64,000 nt of DNA from a virus (lineage: Duplodnaviria; Heunggongvirae; Uroviricota; Caudoviricetes). Location: the IMG/VR virus record IMGVR_UViG_3300046542_000259; one strand, given 5' to 3'. The notes beneath the pieces are model-generated. The model was not told the DNA's origin, made no database searches, and saw only the letters and a program-made list of their open reading frames with translations. This document shows positions 2,833-63,268 of this stretch, piece by piece. The first letter of the stretch is position 1. Every line of letters starts with the position of its first letter. The translations under genes and the position numbers were made by a program.

Positions 2833-4512
2833 ATGGCAACGATTCAGAAAAATGTAAACCAAGTCACGGCCACTGGAGCCACCTCTCTCCTTGGAACGAA
2901 GCCGGATGGGAAACTTGCGTCCAAACCTGTGTCCGAGCTTGCCACGGCTGTCCAAGGAACTAAGGCAGATACAGCGATTCAACCAAGTGATATTGGAACC
3001 AGTGTCCAAGCTTACAACGCAAATTTAAATTCTGTGCCTGCCGAAGTAGCTGTTCGAGTCATTGAGTTTGATATCCGCATGTCTCAATTTGCTGGGGGTG
3101 CGGCATGGGATGATAGTACTGACGATACCCCAGCAATGGCAGCAGCCATCGCCTATTTCCAAACACTTGGTGGCTTAAACCAATATGAAGGCCAAAATTC
3201 CGCTGTACTACGTTTACCTCGTGGGGTCGGTCGTATATCCAACCTTGACCTAACTCTTGCTAAAAACGTAACCATTACCGGTCTAAGTGATGGTGCTACC
3301 ACTATTCGTAACATCAATAATAATACTTGCCTCAAGACTACAAACGTTACAGGTGTGAATGACTTGTTTCGTCTTAAATTGAAGGACTTTACCATAATCG
3401 GTCCCGGTAGGGCAAACACGAGTGCATTCGGTATTGACTTCTTCGCCGTTAATCACGGCAGCATCGAGAACGTGCGTGTATATTCTTGTCATGCCGCTAT
3501 GAGGTTTAAGAACAACTGGCAAACCCAAGTTATTCGTCCGATGATCGATGGCGGACCAACCGTTGGGAGCTTGTCTTGCATGGATGGTATCCAAATGCTC
3601 GACGGTCCCGGCTCCGTTGTGGAAAATTGTATCAAACTCAACGGAGGCGTCATCTCAGGGGTGGAGCGGTATGGCTTCCGAGGCGAGAGTGTTTGTGGGT
3701 CTCTTATTAGCGGACTGGAAATGCTGGCGTGCGGTAGTACGGCAATGTACTTAGGCGATAGCCCATCAGGGAAAGACCTAAAATGGTTTTCTGCTGTTGG
3801 ATTGATGTTCGACACATCAGGAGATTTGCTCATTATCAATAAGGGCTCATCTACGATAGCTGAGCAATTACATTTCTCCAGTCTCTGGATGGGCAATGCA
3901 ACAGCCGGAGCGGGCCAAGGCGATGCTATCCGTATAAATGGGCTAATAGACTCAACCTTTCAAGCTGACCTTATCAGCCTCGTGGACACAGCATTTGTAG
4001 CAAATGATTGTTCTAGATTGATGTTTGATTTCAGAAATATCAATGATTACGACAAATCTCTAGTCGGAGCCGTACCCATAATATTAAACAACAGCCAGAA
4101 TATGTCTGTTCGGGGAGGTCCGATGATTAAAAACACAGGCTCACCTGCTACCCTTGTTTTGGCAGAAACCGGGACCACTAATTATAGTAATATTCAAGGT
4201 ATTAACGGCGACGGTGGCATGACCATCATTGGCGCAAATAGCATCGTCAAGGGAAATATTGGGTATAAGACACATAACTCGGGCCTAGTCAATGTGCTAA
4301 CCACTACTACAAGCACGGTAGTAAATCATGGATTAGGCAGAACTCCTACAGATGGAGATATTATTGCCACACCAAAATTCAATATCGGCTCCGTTGGCGT
4401 CACTGATTTCTGGATCGACACCATCACAGCAACCCAATTCACGATTCACACAAACGCTGCACCATCAAGCAATCTTGGCTTCCACTGGCAAGCTGATGTT
4501 TCAAGAGGGTAA
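2833..4512 (+). CDS. Tailspike-like protein, probable beta-helix receptor-binding or depolymerase protein
   Basis: It follows the fibre genes. Repeated short beta-strand-like N/G/T-rich segments (NVTITGLSDGATTIRNINNN...) resemble pectate-lyase-type beta-helices. No catalytic motif was recognised. Confidence 0.35.
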   Translation: MATIQKNVNQVTATGATSLLGTKPDGKLASKPVSELATAVQGTKADTAIQPSDIGTSVQAYNANLNSVPAEVAVRVIEFDIRMSQFAGGAAWDDSTDDTPAMAAAIAYFQTLGGLNQYEGQNSAVLRLPRGVGRISNLDLTLAKNVTITGLSDGATTIRNINNNTCLKTTNVTGVNDLFRLKLKDFTIIGPGRANTSAFGIDFFAVNHGSIENVRVYSCHAAMRFKNNWQTQVIRPMIDGGPTVGSLSCMDGIQMLDGPGSVVENCIKLNGGVISGVERYGFRGESVCGSLISGLEMLACGSTAMYLGDSPSGKDLKWFSAVGLMFDTSGDLLIINKGSSTIAEQLHFSSLWMGNATAGAGQGDAIRINGLIDSTFQADLISLVDTAFVANDCSRLMFDFRNINDYDKSLVGAVPIILNNSQNMSVRGGPMIKNTGSPATLVLAETGTTNYSNIQGINGDGGMTIIGANSIVKGNIGYKTHNSGLVNVLTTTTSTVVNHGLGRTPTDGDIIATPKFNIGSVGVTDFWIDTITATQFTIHTNAAPSSNLGFHWQADVSRG

Positions 4513-4570
4513 CTATCCATCTTTAAACTAGCCTGACAATTCATTAATAAAAGACTTGAAAATTTTAATA

Positions 4571-4595
4571 ACCCGCCTGTGGCGGGTTATTTTTT
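4571..4595. terminator. Intrinsic terminator, probably bidirectional
   Basis: ACCCGCC-TGT-GGCGGGT followed by TATTTTTT. It sits between the + fibre gene and the converging minus-strand gene. Confidence 0.7.
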
Positions 4596-5259
4596 AATCA
4601 ATAATAGCTTGATCCGCAACGGCAAATGGTCTTTTCCTCAACATACGACACGTCTGCGTAATGATTTGACGCCCCGTTAGTCCGAGAATCATTCGTTCCA
4701 CCAGCTTCATCATATTATCTTTAGACTGATAAGGTAAAGCCGTATCGCGGCACACCTCAAGCAGTTCTTCGCGCCACAAGAGTTGAAGCACTGCCCTTAA
4801 TTCAGGCGTTGGAAAACTGTCTTGCTTTGAACCGCGTGGGACGATTTTCCATGTGTGATCAAGACTGAAATCAGTTTTCTTTGGTTCGGGGTAATACCAG
4901 AGATTTTTATTAGTACCATAACCTTTTAAAGATTTAAATTCTTCCGGCTCTACGATAAAAGGTCTCACCCTATTGGTATGATTGCTTATGGTGAAAAACT
5001 TTTTATCGAGGACTAGATATGTTTGATGGCTGCAAGCACTAAACGCCTCCCATTGTTTGGCCAAACGTTTCAAAACATCTTTCTCTGATTTAATCTCAAA
5101 CAACAGAATTTCAGCACGCCCGACACAAGCAAGATCGGCGCGAGGACTACCCGTGCCCGCCGTATTCAATTCGTGAATTATTCGTGATTCGGGTCTAAAT
5201 GCTCTAAGTTTGTCGATAACGCAAAGGCGCATCTCTTTCTCGTGTATGCTTCCGGCCAA
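4594..5259 (-). CDS. Hypothetical protein with a possible PD-(D/E)XK nuclease-like motif
   Basis: Minus-strand ORF in a + strand region. The N-terminal half contains ...ADLACVG...LFEIKSEKD, a D-(x)n-E-x-K pattern. The listed start is TTG; the first ATG gives MRLCVIDKL at 5232. Confidence 0.3.
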   Translation of the reverse strand: MAGSIHEKEMRLCVIDKLRAFRPESRIIHELNTAGTGSPRADLACVGRAEILLFEIKSEKDVLKRLAKQWEAFSACSHQTYLVLDKKFFTISNHTNRVRPFIVEPEEFKSLKGYGTNKNLWYYPEPKKTDFSLDHTWKIVPRGSKQDSFPTPELRAVLQLLWREELLEVCRDTALPYQSKDNMMKLVERMILGLTGRQIITQTCRMLRKRPFAVADQAIID

Positions 5260-29170: not shown

Positions 29171-29224
29171 ATAAAAATGGAGAAAGTCGTTATAAATTGA
29201 CTTTCTCCATTTTTGTGTTATGAT
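29171..29224 (+). promoter_or_regulatory. Hairpin plus sigma70-like promoter element, copy 1
   Basis: 15-bp perfect inverted repeat AAAATGGAGAAAGTC (29174-29188) / GACTTTCTCCATTTT (29199-29213). TTGACT lies in the right arm (29197-29202), 16 nt, TATGAT (29219-29224). Confidence 0.5.
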
Positions 29225-29253
29225 AGTGCTTTTATCTCTTTGAAAGTCTTATT

Positions 29254-30240
29254 ATGCCTACAGCCGTTTCATACCCGTTTGGAAAGAAAAGTTTTTCCGG
29301 CCCGAACACGCTAAAGTACGGTCTTCTTAATAAGAAGAAAATCTGTTTCAGGGGATGGGTTCCGCCTATTAACGTCACGCCTCCCGCCATTACTGGTAAC
29401 AGATGGATAGGTCAAACGCTAAGCACCACCAATGGAGAGTGGGACGACGCAGGCTCAACTATCTCGGCTTACACTTATCAATGGAAGCGGAACGGCGCAG
29501 TTATTGTTGGAGCAACGGCAATCACCTATGTCCTTGTCGCCGCAGATGGTGGAACAACCATCACATGCACTGTGACCGCCATCAATATGGGCGGCGGCAC
29601 TAGTGCTGAGACAGCAGCAGTTTCCGCCATGTCACCGTCTAAGAGTTTCATTGAAGGCCGTACCGCTGTGACAGCGGGAACGACGACTCATACAGCTGTT
29701 AGCTTCGGGGAAATCGCACCAGCGGGCGAAAAACGTTATGTCGTAGTTTGCATCGCTTACGAAGACCTGTCATCGGCACGCACGATCACTTCCGTTACTG
29801 TGGGAGGAATAGCCGCGACACGAGTGATTCGTTCACAAGCCGATGCATCTTTATCCGGCTCGGAAATTTGGATCGCTGATGTACCGACTGGAACTTCTGG
29901 TACGATCTCCTTTACCTCCAGCGCCAACCGTACTTCGATTTCTGTATATAGAGTGATGAATATCACCAGCGCCACAGCAACATCGACGGCAATCATTGCG
30001 ACTAGCGGTAATGGCCCTGCGAATCTGAGTGTCACAACAGGCGATGTGGTCCTAGCGGTACAAGCGACGTTTGGAACGACGGATGTTACCTTCACCGCTG
30101 TCACTGAGGATTATGACGTGACGGCTGGTTCGTTCCATCGTGGAGCGAGTGGGTCGTCAATTGCTGCCACAACTGGTACGCTTGGAGTTAATAGCTCGCC
30201 TGTCAGTGGACGGCAATTGTGTGTCGCGGCTTTCCGTTAA
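29254..30240 (+). CDS. Tail fibre protein (receptor-binding cassette A)
   Basis: N-terminal MPTAVSYPFGKK... adaptor segment shared with ORF 30350. Thr/Ala/Gly-rich body. Confidence 0.4.
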   Translation: MPTAVSYPFGKKSFSGPNTLKYGLLNKKKICFRGWVPPINVTPPAITGNRWIGQTLSTTNGEWDDAGSTISAYTYQWKRNGAVIVGATAITYVLVAADGGTTITCTVTAINMGGGTSAETAAVSAMSPSKSFIEGRTAVTAGTTTHTAVSFGEIAPAGEKRYVVVCIAYEDLSSARTITSVTVGGIAATRVIRSQADASLSGSEIWIADVPTGTSGTISFTSSANRTSISVYRVMNITSATATSTAIIATSGNGPANLSVTTGDVVLAVQATFGTTDVTFTAVTEDYDVTAGSFHRGASGSSIAATTGTLGVNSSPVSGRQLCVAAFR

Positions 30241-30262
30241 CTAAGCTTTAATTTAATTTTTT

Positions 30263-30312
30263 TTCTGGAGAAAGTCAGTATAAATTGACTTTCTCCATTT
30301 GTATGTTATAAT
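30263..30312 (+). promoter_or_regulatory. Hairpin plus sigma70-like promoter element, copy 2
   Basis: GGAGAAAGTC (30267-30276) / GACTTTCTCC (30287-30296). TTGACT (30285-30290), 16 nt, TATAAT (30307-30312). Confidence 0.5.
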
Positions 30313-30349
30313 GCAGTCTTTATAATTTTTTATTTAAAGGATTTTTATT

Positions 30350-30559
30350 TTGCCTACAATTATTACATTCCCTTTTGGGAAAAAGACATACCCAAATCCG
30401 AGCCAGAAAAAGAATAAAATTAAGAACAGAGCCGCGCCTTCTGATGGAGGGATGGTGCCTGCCGGATATACACAGACGTTTAATAATGGTGTTCCAGTTA
30501 CTTATAACGGCAAGCCGGTCTTTGATGACGGAACCAATTTTTATGTGAGATCAGCATGA
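30350..30559 (+). CDS. Stand-alone N-terminal fibre adaptor segment (69 aa)
   Basis: MPTIITFPFGKKTYPNP... is paralogous to the N-terminus of 29254..30240. Its stop overlaps the next start (ATGA). Confidence 0.35.
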   Translation: MPTIITFPFGKKTYPNPSQKKNKIKNRAAPSDGGMVPAGYTQTFNNGVPVTYNGKPVFDDGTNFYVRSA

Positions 30560-32139
30560 GCGAATTTGTAGATGTACTTTATGAATCCGGCATCCCTCAT
30601 GGAATAGTTGGATCAAACCGTTTTAATCCATTTGACTCGAATGTGATGCTGAATTATTACATTGAGTCCACAGACGGAATTGCTTATCTTTCAAACGCTG
30701 GAGCCACGAAGTATCATCTTTCCGGGTATATTCCGGTTAAACCCGGAGTCACGTATCGAAAAAGTTCCAATAGTGGACCTATTGGATATTTTGATAGGAA
30801 TCTTGTTTGGCTATCCGGCGTTCTGTCCCCCGGCAATACTTTCACTCCTCCTTCCGGGGCCTCTTATGTCCGCCTTTCGATTCCAAGAACTGCATGGTCC
30901 AGTTTCTATGTAATCATTGACGGAGAATCGGCAGTTTGGACACCGTATGGAAATAGACCAGCGAATGTTCCGACAAATCCGTTGAACATTGGATTTATGA
31001 GGAAATCGAAGCACCTTCTCATGAAGCGTCTGCTACCGTCGCCGGAATCGGCCCGTGTCATTTTTAACTGCGCCGGAGATAGTTACACCCACAACGCAAG
31101 TCGTTGGACCAAGTATTTCGCGGAATATATGGTCGCAAAATATGGTGATGGCGGCGGCGGATGGTGTGGTTTCAGCTACTCGTCGGCTGGCACACCTCCT
31201 TACGGAGTAGGAAATCAGCCTTCGTCTCTCAACGGAAATGTTAGAGCGGCTACTTACCCTACATTAATCTTCGCAACTCCAATCGCCTCTTATGCTTCGA
31301 AAAATATGCCTGATATCAGTGCATTGACGTTAGCAGCTACGGGCCAATATGCATTTCAGGCATTTCCAGCTTTGCCAGTACATAACGGAATAGATTTGTT
31401 CTTCGAAGGTACGACAGATGGAGTGGTAAAATATAGACACGGCACTTACGTATCCGGGGCTGTGGATGATCCCGCTAGCTACTCATGGGGAAGCAACACA
31501 AACATCAACCTTCAAGGAACTGTAGGCGCGACACAGATTGCAGACATAAAAACTGGAATGACTAGCGGAGCGGGTGCTGTAATTGTAGAATGGGTCTCAG
31601 GAACGTCAATCGTATCAGGGGTAAACCTAAAATCTACCGCTAATGGCGTGGTCGTCAACAAGATTGCGGCGAGCGGGTCTCAGGCGAATAGCTGGTACAG
31701 CAGAGATGCAACTAATTGGCAAACCGGCATTGCCGCGCTCGGCGGTGACGTTTTTATATACATGGATGGACCTAACAGTCAGTCCTCAACCGTTACTCCC
31801 GCGACATGGGGCGCGTATGTTGAAACGATTATGACAAGGGTTAGAGTCGCCCTACCCGGAAGTGATATTCTTGTCGTAACGCCCCCGGAAAATCAGAGAA
31901 CCGATAACCGTATTTCTATCTTGAGCTACCAAGTTGAAGCCGTTGCTAGGGCTATTAAGAATAGATACACTTTTCTCGATCTTCAGACCGCGTTTGGTGA
32001 TGGCGGGAATGCGACTGAATACGGGAGCGCTGGTATCATACCCCTGTTTAACGCAGACCTTCTTCACCCGGAGCCTGCAACTGGCGGTCGTCTGATGCTA
32101 AAAGAATTTCTTCGAACTATCGAGCCATTATCGACCTAA
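30556..32139 (+). CDS. Tail fibre/spike protein with an SGNH hydrolase domain (cassette B)
   Basis: Block I NCAGDSYT, GPNS (block III-like) and C-terminal DLLHPEP (DxxH). Confidence 0.5.
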   Translation: MSEFVDVLYESGIPHGIVGSNRFNPFDSNVMLNYYIESTDGIAYLSNAGATKYHLSGYIPVKPGVTYRKSSNSGPIGYFDRNLVWLSGVLSPGNTFTPPSGASYVRLSIPRTAWSSFYVIIDGESAVWTPYGNRPANVPTNPLNIGFMRKSKHLLMKRLLPSPESARVIFNCAGDSYTHNASRWTKYFAEYMVAKYGDGGGGWCGFSYSSAGTPPYGVGNQPSSLNGNVRAATYPTLIFATPIASYASKNMPDISALTLAATGQYAFQAFPALPVHNGIDLFFEGTTDGVVKYRHGTYVSGAVDDPASYSWGSNTNINLQGTVGATQIADIKTGMTSGAGAVIVEWVSGTSIVSGVNLKSTANGVVVNKIAASGSQANSWYSRDATNWQTGIAALGGDVFIYMDGPNSQSSTVTPATWGAYVETIMTRVRVALPGSDILVVTPPENQRTDNRISILSYQVEAVARAIKNRYTFLDLQTAFGDGGNATEYGSAGIIPLFNADLLHPEPATGGRLMLKEFLRTIEPLST

Positions 32140-32158
32140 TCAGTTTATCCATAAAAAT

Positions 32159-32190
32159 AAAGCCCGCCAATGGCGGGGCTTTAATCTTTT
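32159..32190 (+). terminator. Rho-independent terminator
   Basis: AGCCCGCC / AATG / GGCGGGGCT followed by TTAATCTTTT. Confidence 0.65.
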
Positions 32191-32202
32191 AGGGGTAGCA
32201 TA

Positions 32203-32325
32203 TGCCCTTGATGGCTGGTTCGTTCCATCGAGGAGCGAGCGGGGTCGGTAATTGCCGCTTCGACCGGAACGCTGGGGTTAATAGTTCTCCTGTCAGTGGT
32301 CGGCAATTATGTGTCGCGGCTTTCC
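32203..32325 (+). pseudogene. Duplicated relic of the 3' end of fibre gene 29254..30240
   Basis: 32209..32330 is an imperfect direct repeat of 30119..30240. It keeps a 40-codon frame, MAGSFHRGASGVGNCRFDRNAGVNSSPVSGRQLCVAAFH, versus ...AGSFHRGASGSSIAATTGTLGVNSSPVSGRQLCVAAFR. Confidence 0.5.
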
Positions 32326-32369
32326 ATTAAAACATTTGAACTAGAAATTGCTTAATTCAGTTAATAATT

Positions 32370-33341
32370 ATGAGTAAACATGTATATCCACGCCTTAAAG
32401 AAGGTGATCAATTCAATTATTTAACCGTAATAGAATACGGTGGAAGGCAAAAAGCTTACAAATATAAGTGCGAGTGTGTATGTGGAAAAATAACATATGT
32501 TGTTAGTACAAATTTAAGGAACGGTAGAGCTAAATCATGCGGCTGTAAAGCTAGCGAGTTTAATATTAAAAATTTGCCTCGAAAACAAAGAGTAACGCCT
32601 ATCATAAACAAAATGTTTAGAGATTACAAATTAGGTGCTACTACAAGAAATTATGAATTTGATCTTTCTCTTTCGGAGTTTGAAGTGTTAATATTTAGGA
32701 GCTGCCATTATTGCGGATCACCGCCTAGCACACCTAAAAAGTCCAGAGCGGTTAAGGAAGCAAACGTCGAAGATTTGTACGTGAATGGAATAGATAGATT
32801 AGATAACAGTAAGGGGTATCATGCAAATAATGTTGTCCCATGTTGTAAAACTTGTAACTATGCTAAGGGTCCATTAACTGTTGAAGAGTGGATTTCTTGG
32901 ATAAGGCGTGTAATTACTTACAAATATTCCGAAAATAAAAATACCCTTGACTTTAATATTCGTTCCACTGAAGAAGATGGTCTTGGAGCTATTACATTAA
33001 AGCTTTATAGAGGCTACAGGAATGATGCCAAGAAAAGAGGTTACGAATTTTCTCTTCCTTACGACGATTTCTCTGTTTTAATTCAAAATAATTGTTCATA
33101 TTGTAATTCACCGCCCTCCACGAAAAAATCTCCGAGAAAAAATAAGTTTAAGAAATTGAAATCATTTCTATTGAATGGAGTTGATAGAATCGATAATTCA
33201 ATAGGCTATGCCGGATACAATTGTGTGCCCTGCTGTAAAATTTGTAATTACGCAAAACATAAATTAGATTTCAGTGATTGGATTAAATGGCTGGAGAATA
33301 TAAGGTTATATAATTATCCAGATAAAATAAAGCCCTCTTAA
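32370..33341 (+). CDS. Tandem-domain HNH-family endonuclease (homing-endonuclease-like)
   Basis: Two copies of CxYCxSPPS...NG[IV]DR[LI]DNSxGY...VPCCK[TI]CNYAK. Very AT-rich gene. Confidence 0.5.
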   Translation: MSKHVYPRLKEGDQFNYLTVIEYGGRQKAYKYKCECVCGKITYVVSTNLRNGRAKSCGCKASEFNIKNLPRKQRVTPIINKMFRDYKLGATTRNYEFDLSLSEFEVLIFRSCHYCGSPPSTPKKSRAVKEANVEDLYVNGIDRLDNSKGYHANNVVPCCKTCNYAKGPLTVEEWISWIRRVITYKYSENKNTLDFNIRSTEEDGLGAITLKLYRGYRNDAKKRGYEFSLPYDDFSVLIQNNCSYCNSPPSTKKSPRKNKFKKLKSFLLNGVDRIDNSIGYAGYNCVPCCKICNYAKHKLDFSDWIKWLENIRLYNYPDKIKPS

Positions 33342-59893: not shown

Positions 59894-60799
59894 ATGATTA
59901 AGAATACTATGCTCGCCGCTGTTATTGCCATTTCTGGTATGGCATTTGCCGCTCCTGTCATGGCTCAAGGTGCTGCACTTCCTGTCCTCAAGCTCTGCAC
60001 CGGAGCAAAGGGTGGTAATTATGAATTCGTTGGTCTAACGACTCAGCGCCAGCTTCGCGGCGTTATCGATGTGCAACTCGTCTCCACCAATGGCGGCGAA
60101 GAAAATCTCAAGCTGATCGCCAATGGTACTTGTGACGCTGGACTGGCACAGTCTGATACGATTTGGGGTGCTGGTTCCATCGACGCCAATTCCATTTCCA
60201 CTCTTTACACCGAGTATGTTCACCTCCTTTGTAACAAGGAAAGTGGAGTCGAATCTTTCTCCGATCTGAAGAAGGGTAATTCGGTCTTCGCTGGGACAAA
60301 GGGCGGCGGTGCAGATTCTACTATTCGCGGCCTCATCAAGGCTGACAAGGAATATGGTGGAAACGATTACGATGGTTTAGCTATTATCAATGAAGATAAT
60401 AAGACTGCGCTGGTTGATCTAACTGAAGGAAATCGGGCTCAGTGCATGGTTTACGTCGGTAGTCCCGGTAACGCTCTGATGGAAAGCGCTGAAAAGCGTA
60501 ACGCAACACTGGAACTTGTTCCGGTTCAGGATAAGGATTTTAATGACGTGACTTATAAGGATAAGAGCGGGACGGAAAGCTCAGTTTGGAATCCTACCAC
60601 TCTCGCCGCTAATTCTTATGGCAAGATCATGCCGGATGGCGCGATGTGGGGCAACGCTGATCTTGAAACCATCGGCGTGCTGGCCAAGTTCCTCGTTTCA
60701 AGTTCTTGGAAGTCAAACAATATTGAGGCTTATGGTGAGCTAGGTGACGCTGTTCTAGGTGTTGGTGATATTGTCCGCGCCGAAAAGAAGCTCAATTGA
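59894..60799 (+). CDS. Secreted periplasmic solute-binding protein (TAXI-TRAP/PhnD-like fold)
   Basis: Signal peptide MIKNTMLAAVIAISGMAFAAPVMA|QG. ENLKLIANGTCDAGLAQSD resembles the TAXI motif ENLRLLRSGEADLALVQSD. AAGGAGAAAC RBS. GC is locally higher. Confidence 0.45.
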   Translation: MIKNTMLAAVIAISGMAFAAPVMAQGAALPVLKLCTGAKGGNYEFVGLTTQRQLRGVIDVQLVSTNGGEENLKLIANGTCDAGLAQSDTIWGAGSIDANSISTLYTEYVHLLCNKESGVESFSDLKKGNSVFAGTKGGGADSTIRGLIKADKEYGGNDYDGLAIINEDNKTALVDLTEGNRAQCMVYVGSPGNALMESAEKRNATLELVPVQDKDFNDVTYKDKSGTESSVWNPTTLAANSYGKIMPDGAMWGNADLETIGVLAKFLVSSSWKSNNIEAYGELGDAVLGVGDIVRAEKKLN

Positions 60800-61086
60800 T
60801 TTTCTTTCCTCCACAATTAACAGGTGACAAAGAGGGCTCTTCATTGAGCCCTCTTTTGATTCCAAATTTATTTACCTCATATAGTGATTTAGATATTGAC
60901 AAAATGATTGAAACGTGCGATAAGTCACGAACAATACGCGAACAGCTGCATGACCAAATAATCAGGGCGGCTGAGAATTTCATCAGACCGAGAATTATGT
61001 TCACAGGGCCGGATGCAAATCACATCATCCGTTATACTATTTACGAAACGGTTATAATTAATGAAAATTACAGTTCAAACAGATAA
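60796..61086 (+). CDS. Hypothetical protein
   Basis: Coupled ORF. Confidence 0.3.
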   Translation: MIFFPPQLTGDKEGSSLSPLLIPNLFTSYSDLDIDKMIETCDKSRTIREQLHDQIIRAAENFIRPRIMFTGPDANHIIRYTIYETVIINENYSSNR

Positions 61087-61315
61087 GATGAATTCTCCAA
61101 AGGTCTACCAGAACGCGATTTCCAGTTACGAAAAAGGTTCGTTCTTTTGTGTACAATACACAGTAGAGGTCCAAGAAACCGTACCAATGGTTTGGTATTA
61201 CGATGGAGTTCAAATCCCCAAACAATTCAACATGTCTACGGAATCTACCAAAACCAAGACCTTCATAGATAAATATCCAATTAACACTTTATTCAGAGTT
61301 ATGGAAGAATATTAA
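61061..61315 (+). CDS. Hypothetical protein
   Basis: Overlapping ORF. Confidence 0.3.
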   Translation: MKITVQTDKMNSPKVYQNAISSYEKGSFFCVQYTVEVQETVPMVWYYDGVQIPKQFNMSTESTKTKTFIDKYPINTLFRVMEEY

Positions 61316-61518
61316 TGGCAATAGATACAAGAACTAGGAATGCTTATGTGACCTTCAAGGACACCAATTTTGGTAGCATTGAATACAAGAATATCTCTTG
61401 GTTTGATTTTAGCGGCGCAAATCTCGAAATTTATGTAGAAGATGGTAGAGGTAAACCGAATAAGGTTTATATTCCTAGAGAAAATGTACATCATTTTGAG
61501 GTTGTTTGGGAAGATTAA
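61315..61518 (+). CDS. Hypothetical protein
   Basis: Coupled ORF. Confidence 0.35.
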   Translation: MAIDTRTRNAYVTFKDTNFGSIEYKNISWFDFSGANLEIYVEDGRGKPNKVYIPRENVHHFEVVWED

Positions 61519-61553
61519 TGAAACAATTAATTAAACTTGATTTTGGTAATTAG
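61518..61553 (+). pseudogene. Orphaned 5' fragment (11 codons, MKQLIKLDFGN*) of the nucleotidyltransferase gene
   Basis: 61521..61547 is 26/27 identical to 62273..62299 at the start of the NTase ORF. Confidence 0.5.
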
Positions 61554-62286
61554 ACGTTTGCTAGACAATTCATATTATGTGTATTTATTACTCAACCCTT
61601 TGAAAAACGATGAACCTTTTTACATCGGTAAAGGTAAGGGAAAAAGAGTTAAGGATCATTACACACCCGGCTACTTAAAACAGAATAACCATAAATCTAA
61701 CATTATCAATCTTTATAGATCAAAGGGATATGAAGATAAATATCTCATACTAAAAGATGGGATGACAAATCAAGAGGCTTATGATTGGGAAACTTGGTTC
61801 ATTCTTGAAATGTATGGGATGAAGAAAGCTGGTGGTCTGCTAGTAAATCAAACTACAGGAGGTGGTGGATCGCCGGGATTTGCCGCACCTAGAACTGACG
61901 AGTGGCGTGAAAAGATTTCTAAAGGAAATAAAGGTAAAAAGAGAACCTCTGCGCAAAACGAGGCAAACTCAAAGCGGACTAAAGCACGGGGGCCTCATCC
62001 TAATGTAGGTGAAAAAATTAGTAAAGCCTTAAAAGGAATCCCAAAAGCTCCTGAACATGTAGATAAAGTTAGAAAAGCTCTTCTAGGAAGAACTTACCCC
62101 GGAAGAGTATATCTTAGAGAAGGCAAAACTTATAATTTAATTTCTCCTTACGGCAAATTATTGGTAGTAACTAATCTGAGTGAATTTTGTAAAATAAATA
62201 ATTTATCCGTTAATTGTATGTATCACGTAGTTAATGGAAGAGCTAGTAATCATAAAGGGTGGAAACTCGGTGAAACAATTAATTAA
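61537..62286 (+). CDS. GIY-YIG homing endonuclease (Seg-like) with NUMOD-type repeats
   Basis: YYVYLLLNPLKNDEPFYIGKGKGKR is the GIY-YIG motif. The C-terminus has Lys-rich repeats EKISKGNKGKK / GEKISKALKG. AT-rich. The start codon is uncertain (TTG 61537 or GTG 61579). Confidence 0.6.
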   Translation: MILVIRRLLDNSYYVYLLLNPLKNDEPFYIGKGKGKRVKDHYTPGYLKQNNHKSNIINLYRSKGYEDKYLILKDGMTNQEAYDWETWFILEMYGMKKAGGLLVNQTTGGGGSPGFAAPRTDEWREKISKGNKGKKRTSAQNEANSKRTKARGPHPNVGEKISKALKGIPKAPEHVDKVRKALLGRTYPGRVYLREGKTYNLISPYGKLLVVTNLSEFCKINNLSVNCMYHVVNGRASNHKGWKLGETIN

Positions 62287-63268
62287 ACTTGAATTTGGGA
62301 GTTCACTTTACGGAACAAAAACTCCTACGAGCGATACGGACTACAAAGGCGTGCATATTCCTTCGGCCCGTTCTCTAGTGATGCAGAACGCGGATCGCGT
62401 CATTTCAAATTCAACTGGCAGTGATAAAGTCAAAAATACTGCGGATGATGTTGATGATGAGAGTTTTTCCCTTCTAAAATTCTTTGCTATGCTGAAGAAG
62501 GGCGACATGGTGGCTCAAGAACTACTACATGTGTCTGTTGAACAGGCTCTTGTCATGTCGCCAGAGTGGGAAAACATTATCCTCCCTAACAAAAATCGCC
62601 TCGTTGCTAGAGATGTTAAAGGCTTTGTAGGCTACTGTAGGCAACAAGCAAACAAATATGGTATACGAGGATCGCGTGTCGCTGCGGCTCGCAATGCAAC
62701 TGAAATGTTCGCGTTCTGGATCGAACAGTACGGGGCAAACACAAAGATCAAAGACGTTCCCGATTTCGAGCACTTTTTTGAGTGTTTCTGTGAACTCAAC
62801 GAACACGCCGAGGTGATTCAACTTCCTGTGGCTAAGGGCAGCACGGAAATGGTTAACTACCTAGAAGTAGTAAACCGTAAAGTTGGCTACACCATCGCGC
62901 TCAAGGAAGCTCATTCTATCTATAAGAGAGCCTTCGATGAATTCGGTTCAAGGGCTCTTGCGGCGGAAAAGAACGAAGGCGTGGACTGGAAAGCCTTGTA
63001 TCACGCGATTCGCGTCTCAGAGCAAGCCATGGAGCTTCTTCAGGACGGTGTGATCACTTTCCCCCGCTGGAACGCTCAAGAGCTTTTGACTATCAAGCGT
63101 GGTGAGCACGATTACAAAGATATAGCGAGAATGCTGGAAGACAATCTAGATAAGCTTGAAGTGCTCATGACCAAATCCGATTTACCTGAGAAGGTAGATA
63201 CTAATTTTATGGATCAAGTCGCTCATGATCTACACCTCAAACAGATCAAAAATGAATATTTTGCTTAA
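62270..63268 (+). CDS. Pol-beta-superfamily nucleotidyltransferase
   Basis: GSSLYGTKTPTSDTDYKGV is the NTase-fold signature [GS]-x9-DxD. GTG start at 62270 regenerates MKQLIKLEFG. 333 aa. Confidence 0.5.
   Translation: MKQLIKLEFGSSLYGTKTPTSDTDYKGVHIPSARSLVMQNADRVISNSTGSDKVKNTADDVDDESFSLLKFFAMLKKGDMVAQELLHVSVEQALVMSPEWENIILPNKNRLVARDVKGFVGYCRQQANKYGIRGSRVAAARNATEMFAFWIEQYGANTKIKDVPDFEHFFECFCELNEHAEVIQLPVAKGSTEMVNYLEVVNRKVGYTIALKEAHSIYKRAFDEFGSRALAAEKNEGVDWKALYHAIRVSEQAMELLQDGVITFPRWNAQELLTIKRGEHDYKDIARMLEDNLDKLEVLMTKSDLPEKVDTNFMDQVAHDLHLKQIKNEYFA

Follow-up and report, generated by a model that had tools for sequence, protein, structure and literature searches.

The question raised by one locus of IMGVR_UViG_3300046542_000259, a Caudoviricetes record of IMG/VR, is how a homing endonuclease gene can enter the beginning of a conserved phage gene and leave that gene in working order. 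The whole stretch of DNA analysed, 64,000 nt long, is called the window here. Between its positions 61315 and 63268, a free-standing GIY-YIG endonuclease gene sits at the 5' end of a nucleotidyltransferase (NTase) gene of the NrdC.11 type in a T4-like phage, and the beginning of the NTase gene is found on both sides of it. Comparison with related phage contigs supports an insertion in which the first 9-11 NTase codons were duplicated on the two flanks and the NTase remained, as far as its reading frame tells, intact. The endonuclease was probably acquired through the repair of a double-strand break in which homology was available on the NTase side only.

The insertion and its flanking repeat

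The features of the locus are, in order along the window:

61315..61518, + strand: g67, the upstream 67-aa gene, whose TAA stop overlaps the ATG of the relic open reading frame (ORF) as TAATG
61518..61553, + strand: relic ORF of 11 codons, MKQLIKLDFGN* (ATG AAA CAA TTA ATT AAA CTT GAT TTT GGT AAT TAG)
61519..61551, no strand assigned: direct repeat, copy 1 (core 61519-61546)
61552..61557, + strand: spacer separating copy 1 from the start of the endonuclease gene, containing the last two bases of the relic TAG
61558..62286, + strand: homing endonuclease gene of the free-standing GIY-YIG/NUMOD3 type, 242 aa from a TTG start, overlapping the NTase gene by its last 17 nt
61573..61851, + strand: GIY-YIG catalytic domain, aa 6-98 (YYVY ... 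FYIGKGKGKR ... E78 ... N97)
61894..61941, + strand: NUMOD3-type DNA-binding motif, aa 113-128 (Pfam NUMOD3, E 0.011 in the window protein)
62254..62262, + strand: Shine-Dalgarno-like AAAGGGTGG, 7 nt before GTG 62270, lying in the codons for the conserved HKGWK terminus of the endonuclease; function putative
62270..63268, + strand: NrdC.11-type NTase gene, 332 aa, GTG start (FGS at residues 9-11, DTD at residues 22-24)
62271..62303, no strand assigned: direct repeat, copy 2, lying in the working NTase 5' end and the last endonuclease codons

The 28 nt at 61519-61546 (TGAAACAATTAATTAAACTTGATTTTGG) recur as a direct repeat at 62271-62298, with 27/28 positions matching. A repeat search lengthens the pair to 33 nt (61519-61551 and 62271-62303, 30/33), the mismatches of the extended repeat being clustered at its inner end. 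With up to three mismatches allowed, the 28-mer has only these two sites in the 64 kb, and no match was seen in any of 100 dinucleotide-preserving shuffles. The end of the repeat is the Gly codon of the GS (hG[GS]) motif of the NTase. The initial annotation of this DNA had counted 26/27 identities in a 27-nt repeat; the count stands, but both copies had been placed one base away from their true sites, 61520-61546 and 62272-62298. It had also described the 11-codon ORF at 61518..61553 (MKQLIKLDFGN*), and an endonuclease ORF at 61537..62286 that reads into the second copy. Both are present, the latter as the maximal ORF, which runs 17 nt into that copy.

Contigs from three sequencing runs (SRR26076635, SRR26076610 and SRR26077535) are base-for-base the same as the window across the locus, and the arrangement is thus not an assembly artefact. 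No near-identical DNA was found among the INPHARED phages, and an exact scan of IMG/VR with the 28-mer gave no match. When an endonuclease-less variant of the same strain was sought through look-ups of g67 and the NTase, only endonuclease-positive, window-identical contigs were returned. Exact look-ups of P0121 and of a 344-aa NTase call gave no match.

More distant relatives show the site without the insert. Seven related contigs lack the endonuclease (L020, L021, L001, L026, L027, L028 and L109), and each has one continuous NTase 5' end, as the initial annotation had expected, which argues for an insertion. The closest NTase, P0001, is carried by L020 and L021 and is 92% identical to that of the window at the amino acid level over its full length. 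On these contigs, a 65-aa homologue of g67 runs into the NTase ATG as TAATG without an intervening endonuclease, and this stop/start context is that of copy 1 and the relic ORF in the window. A tblastn search of the window with the NTase also finds the relic ORF (9/11 residues). To judge from the shared context, the relic ORF is the native NTase start, displaced together with the 9-10 codons that open the gene, and the earlier suggestion that the short ORF is the beginning of the NTase gene holds. The short ORF and the repeat in the absence of an endonuclease, a combination that would point to an unrelated local duplication, were seen in none of the seven. The presence of the element is therefore polymorphic, with seven contigs lacking the endonuclease and two lineages carrying it at the NTase 5' boundary.

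The two genes and their expression

The endonuclease is matched by PHROG 314 'homing endonuclease' over residues 6-236 (E 1.3e-22). Its family profile finds 9u75, a 'GIY-YIG domain-containing protein', in the PDB over positions 6-98 (E 6.6e-16), and matches UvrC there weakly (E 0.05). Among the 17 family members, 11 match PF22945, the LEM-3-like GIY-YIG domain (best E 5.6e-11), and 10 match NUMOD3 (best E 1.2e-16); the window endonuclease taken alone stays under the Pfam GIY-YIG cut-off (17.6 bits against 27). The GIY-YIG motifs of the window protein are YYVY (residues 6-9) and FYIG (residues 21-24), and all columns that are invariant in an alignment of 17 homologues (Y7, Y9, Y22, G24, R30, E78 and N97) are present in it. 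R30, E78 and N97 are presumed to be catalytic by analogy with I-TevI. Together, the PHROG, 9u75 and PF22945 matches and the invariant residues bear out the earlier identification of the gene as a GIY-YIG homing endonuclease, and on the alignment it is an intact one with all catalytic residues. It had also been described as AT-rich. This is true, the gene having 36% GC where the NTase has 45% and the window as a whole 42%, but it is not distinctive, as the neighbouring small genes are at 35%. Internal repeats include a further NUMOD3-like repeat near 62008-62032; the 19/25 likeness of this NUMOD3-coding repeat to the NTase 5' end at 62269-62293 is probably due to chance.

Annotated phage endonucleases in INPHARED are at most 32% identical to this lineage, and the gene adds a new and distant member to the free-standing GIY-YIG endonucleases. 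A metagenome scan with the endonuclease alignment returned 80 loci, all of them at most 44% identical and none adjoining an NTase. The third-closest homologue, P0123 (43-45% identity), is found at L023 2676-5837, 3' of RtcB and metallophosphatase genes and 5' of an HD-domain gene. No NTase was found at this locus, which has the RtcB/HD-domain neighbourhood instead, and the lineage thus occupies at least two kinds of locus.

With an in-frame stop at 61528-61530, TTG codons are the only candidates for the endonuclease start. TTG 61558 aligns with Met1 of all 16 homologues, which all begin within a few residues of the YYVY strand, and the closest of them, P0122 from contig L022, has ATG CTA GAA at the position of TTG CTA GAC in the window. 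The start is therefore most likely TTG 61558 on this alignment, which suits the homologues better than the start at 61537 adopted in the initial annotation. Gene callers mis-start both genes, placing the endonuclease start at GTG 61579, which would remove an invariant Tyr, and the NTase start in one call at ATG 62234. A +1 frameshift that would fuse the relic ORF with the endonuclease was also considered; no recognisable shift site is present in the open +1 frame (61531-61553), and such a fusion is contradicted by the homologues, all of which start at the position of TTG 61558.

The downstream gene matches Pfam RlaP (E 3.3e-10, 40.5 bits with a cut-off of 23) and PHROG 388 (E 1.5e-79, residues 1-331). 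By tblastn it has relatives in 1550 phage records, mostly T4-like and with 'nrdC.11' of phage Bp7 among them, and the best relative among the isolate phages of INPHARED has 49% protein identity. On these matches, the gene is a Pol-beta-fold NTase of the RlaP / T4 NrdC.11 family, full length from GTG 62270. This codon opens VKQLIKLEFGSSLYG... in frame with the full-length NTase. In 22 homologue contigs the aligned N-terminus lies ~8 residues before the GS motif, and GTG 62270 gives exactly this; the GS motif is present in 22/22 and FGS in most, and an ATG stands at the projected N-terminus in most, with two showing none. GTG 62270 is thus the predicted NTase start giving the canonical N-terminus.

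The initial annotation had proposed that the NTase was made functional again by a new GTG. The canonical N-terminus agrees with the codon's use, but the GTG need not be a repair of insertion damage, because the NTase of L109, which has no endonuclease, natively starts with GTG, behind a strong AGGAG. The L109 NTase (3653-4647) is itself split into ORFs of 239 aa and 102 aa by an apparent short deletion in the '...EMVNYLEVVNRKVGY...' region, and would be a pseudogene, unless the break is an assembly error.

The genes of this operon are, as a rule, linked by stop/start overlaps that lack Shine-Dalgarno motifs. The relic TAG (61551-61553) lies 4 nt before TTG 61558, with no Shine-Dalgarno-like motif before that codon, and the TAA stop of the endonuclease lies 14 nt after GTG 62270. 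Scans for sigma-70-like promoters and terminators around the cassette gave weak 9/12 matches at best, TATAAATA, the late-promoter motif of T4, does not occur in 61000-62400, and no RNA hairpins hiding the starts, as known for I-TevI or segB, were found. Expression may run through a chain of translational coupling, from g67 to the relic ORF (TAATG), then to the endonuclease and on to the NTase. The relic ORF would probably feed weak re-initiation at the endonuclease TTG, which would keep endonuclease levels low, and the NTase would initiate at the GTG inside the last endonuclease codons, helped by the Shine-Dalgarno-like motif. For T4 seg and mob genes without a translation initiation region, coupling or 'scanning' re-initiation has been proposed, without test (PMC2988022).

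In an early-gene-like phage operon, the gene at 59894-60799 encodes a signal-peptide-bearing protein resembling NMT1/TRAP-type periplasmic solute-binding proteins (Pfam NMT1_3, E 1.8e-13). It is kept at the same position in L001, L026, L028 and L109, and is an unusual auxiliary gene.

Origin of the duplication

In the account favoured here, the enzyme would have cut an endonuclease-less NTase allele at or just downstream of codon 10-11, a position predicted because the repeat ends there, at the Gly codon of FGS. Repair would have copied a donor that had the endonuclease directly upstream of its own NTase. These phages have hypervariable small genes upstream, and homology would have existed on the NTase side only; because of this, the left end, still carrying codons 1-10, would have been joined illegitimately to donor sequence upstream of the endonuclease, perhaps at a microhomology. 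The interval between the endonuclease position and the cut would in this way be duplicated, and the insertion would be phenotypically silent for the NTase. Recombination between the two 28-nt copies would cut the endonuclease out precisely, giving back an NTase with an ATG start (g67-TAATG-AAACAATT...GGGAGTTCA). One-sided illegitimate double-strand-break repair with microhomology junctions has been obtained experimentally in T4 (PMC2988022), and in phage T6, SegB cleavage together with microhomology makes 718-bp repeats (PMC13096335).

A second occupied site bears on this account. L022 is the only other place found where this endonuclease lineage adjoins an NTase, directly upstream of it. The L022 endonuclease (431-1216) is flanked by an unrelated 59-aa gene on one side and the NTase on the other, starts with an ATG and ends with a TAA of its own, and carries one NUMOD3-like repeat more than that of the window. 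Between the two, identity is 86% in the catalytic domain and 40% in the DNA-binding part, with 60% between the NTases. This suggests an endonuclease that moved between phages with a retargeted binding domain, and the modular divergence is consistent with retargeting to the differing NTase 5' sequences. The genes upstream of the element in the window and in L022 are not alignable, and between L022 and the endonuclease-less L026 homology starts 1 nt before the NTase ATG. The left flank of the insertion position is thus usually non-homologous between phages, and the pattern as a whole fits an element moved among divergent phages to the same position. No significant duplicate of the NTase 5' end was found in L022 (shuffle p 0.15-0.22). 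The 25-nt spacer before the L022 endonuclease (CTTGTTTTGAGG) is similar to the NTase codon 7-10 region (CTTGATTTTGG), but at these same p values the likeness is a lead for a microhomology junction rather than evidence of one.

Several observations weigh against repair from a one-sided donor. The main weakness is the near-identity of the copies, which differ at 1/28 positions, while the same stretch shows 6/28 differences between the window and the endonuclease-less relative closest to it. The donor must therefore have been closely related, or the copies were homogenised later, or some other route duplicated the resident sequence. Sliding scans of NTase identity to four relatives, the nearest at ~80% in DNA, showed no co-conversion breakpoint. 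The duplication is known from one genotype only, too few to judge how old it is or whether the relic ORF is under selection. The change from ATG to TTG could mark a decaying endonuclease gene. Finally, ATG 62234 is a possible NTase start, used by one JGI gene call; it would add a 12-residue extension that is present in no homologue.

The initial annotation had read the repeat as a target-site duplication and a preserved homing footprint. A direct repeat of target sequence does immediately flank the insert, as would be expected if a staggered cut of ~28 nt had been filled in after ligation of the cassette, in the manner of a transposase. However, 28-33 bp is far beyond the typical lengths of such duplications, and GIY-YIG homing enzymes such as SegB and I-TevI leave 2-nt 3' overhangs. 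The repeat is also imperfect, with its mismatches at the inner end, the cassette ends carry no terminal inverted repeats, its only gene is that of the GIY-YIG nuclease with no transposase, and the related element in L022 has no duplication. This origin is very improbable, and the term footprint does not fit either, as there is no intron and homing by copying during double-strand-break repair leaves no duplication. An equally slim chance attaches to a local duplication of the NTase 5' end that came first, for example by replication slippage, with the endonuclease landing between the copies later. A single genotype is available and small duplications occur elsewhere in the window, which leaves room for such an order of events; against it, the duplicated 5' end is seen in 0/7 endonuclease-less relatives, and two independent rare events would be needed at the same 30 nt. 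Least credible of all is a group I intron, with the relic ORF as exon 1 and splicing that joins MKQLIKLDFG to SSLYG.... Copy 1 joined to the sequence after copy 2 does give a complete NTase frame, and T4 td, nrdB and nrdD carry such introns. However, 61200-62600 has no Rfam match up to E 10, the non-coding sequence amounts to 4 nt before the endonuclease and none after it, which leaves no room for a ribozyme core, the junctions fold no better than shuffled sequence (z -0.37 and +0.40), and splicing would give no reason for exon 1 to be present twice in full, the second time with a start codon of its own.

The chief rival account, if an unlikely one, is that the duplication belongs to the design of the element. 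The endonuclease, its own start and the first ~10 NTase codons would then be one mobile unit homing into the FGS codons, and the resident 5' end would be replaced and left as a relic every time. The junction lies in the hG[GS] motif, conserved in 22/22 homologues, and homing endonucleases typically target conserved motifs. Copy 2 is in frame with the NTase, as a replacement terminus, and copy 1 forms a relic ORF with a premature stop; copy 2 begins with GTG as is native in L109 and copy 1 with the ATG in TAATG as in L020, which hints at two parental alleles. The fungal mORFs of atp6, atp9, cox2 and nad3 have the mirror-image architecture, with an inserted C-terminus, an endonuclease ORF and the displaced native C-terminus (PMC3630166). 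However, the inserted fungal terminus is foreign, 63.5% identical to the native one (PMC3630166), in contrast to the 27/28 of the window copies, and L022, the sole other NTase-adjoining member found, lacks the duplication. In addition, copy 2 holds the whole 28 nt and the sequence downstream, and if the target lay in that stretch, the enzyme could attack its own element. Somewhat more doubtful still is a fully self-contained unit, made up of endonuclease, start codon and ~10 NTase codons, that repairs the gene it interrupts and re-uses the native start as a translation-metering leader ORF. If true, this would be the first phage and the first 5'-end counterpart of the fungal mitochondrial mORF strategy, and the 28-nt repeats would also permit precise, reversible excision.

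Other repeats in the window and known systems

Two other repeats of the window stand out. The last 122 nt (30119-30240) of a virion-structural-like gene (29254-30240) recur at 32209-32330, ~87-90% identical and with frame-breaking indels. The copy lies beyond a tail-fibre-like gene (30556-32139) and directly upstream of an HNH/EndoVII-type endonuclease ORF at 32370-33341, which matches PHROG 1035 (E 2.7e-32) and PHROG 3118 'HNH endonuclease' (E 6.5e-25). The region 29254-33341 may hold another 'displaced gene end' associated with a nuclease in this genome. Separately, a 58-nt cassette stands before two consecutive structural genes, at 29178-29235 and 30266-30323 (83% identity). In it, a GC-rich hairpin (GGAGAAAGTC...GACTTTCTCC) is followed by a T-run and next by a -10-like TATGAT/TATAAT, and the whole looks like a terminator-promoter module.

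The junction structure at the NTase is unusual for phages: the 5' end of the gene is duplicated, a relic leader ORF is present, and the likely start of neither gene is an ATG. The locus offers a natural example of a free-standing homing endonuclease inside a conserved phage gene, at the catalytic motif, with the gene not destroyed and the junctions preserved well enough for the repair history to be read. The length of the duplication predicts a cut at or just 3' of codon 10-11. The 11-codon leader and the TTG without a Shine-Dalgarno motif could make it a simple system for studying how an endonuclease is throttled in a translationally coupled operon, and it may also serve for asking how one-sided-homology break repair reshapes mosaic phage genomes and whether flanking repeats make insertions reversible.

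Among known systems, T4 SegA-G, free-standing seg-type GIY-YIG enzymes of intronless homing, likewise combine a GIY-YIG domain with NUMOD3-type modules. The window cassette is also seg-like in lying on the same strand as its neighbours with no promoter found by the scans, in adjoining a conserved gene and being present or absent among relatives, and in having no obvious translation initiation region and an ORF that overlaps a neighbour. The T4 seg genes differ in their intergenic position, and no duplicated part of a target gene is known to flank them. AUG is the start codon of the free-standing endonuclease genes of T4 apart from mobA, for which GUG is predicted (PMC2988022), whereas the window gene needs TTG. 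A free-standing endonuclease adjoining an NrdC.11 family gene is also known from T4 in mobD; this is, however, an HNH enzyme located between nrdC.11 and mobD.1, by a reading of the gene table on the opposite side of the gene from the insertion in the window.

In one-sided illegitimate repair in T4 (PMC2988022), the junction away from the homology forms at a microhomology, through which an element can reach a new context. The locus shares the one-sided homology, seen in the window as non-homologous upstream flanks beside a conserved NTase side. The T4 case is an engineered plasmid/phage system with an intron, while the event in the window is inferred from its end product only. The fungal mitochondrial mORFs (Allomyces atp6; Glomus atp6, atp9, cox2 and nad3; PMC3630166) resemble the window in two respects: the gene likewise functions through an in-frame terminal copy, and the displaced native terminus is likewise kept as a short relic beyond the ORF. 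The window differs in that the 5' rather than the 3' end is affected, the copies are 28-33 nt rather than 50-280 nt long and near-identical rather than foreign, and the setting is a phage rather than an organelle. A 'transposition-like' insertion into a critical coding region is shared with the split genes, Aeh1 mobE in nrdA, T4 mobA in gene 39/60 and phage 25 seg43, the insertion point in the window being the catalytic FGS motif of the NTase. In the split genes two polypeptides must reassemble, whereas in the window one complete polypeptide is regained through the duplication, and what is left upstream is a relic of 10 residues.

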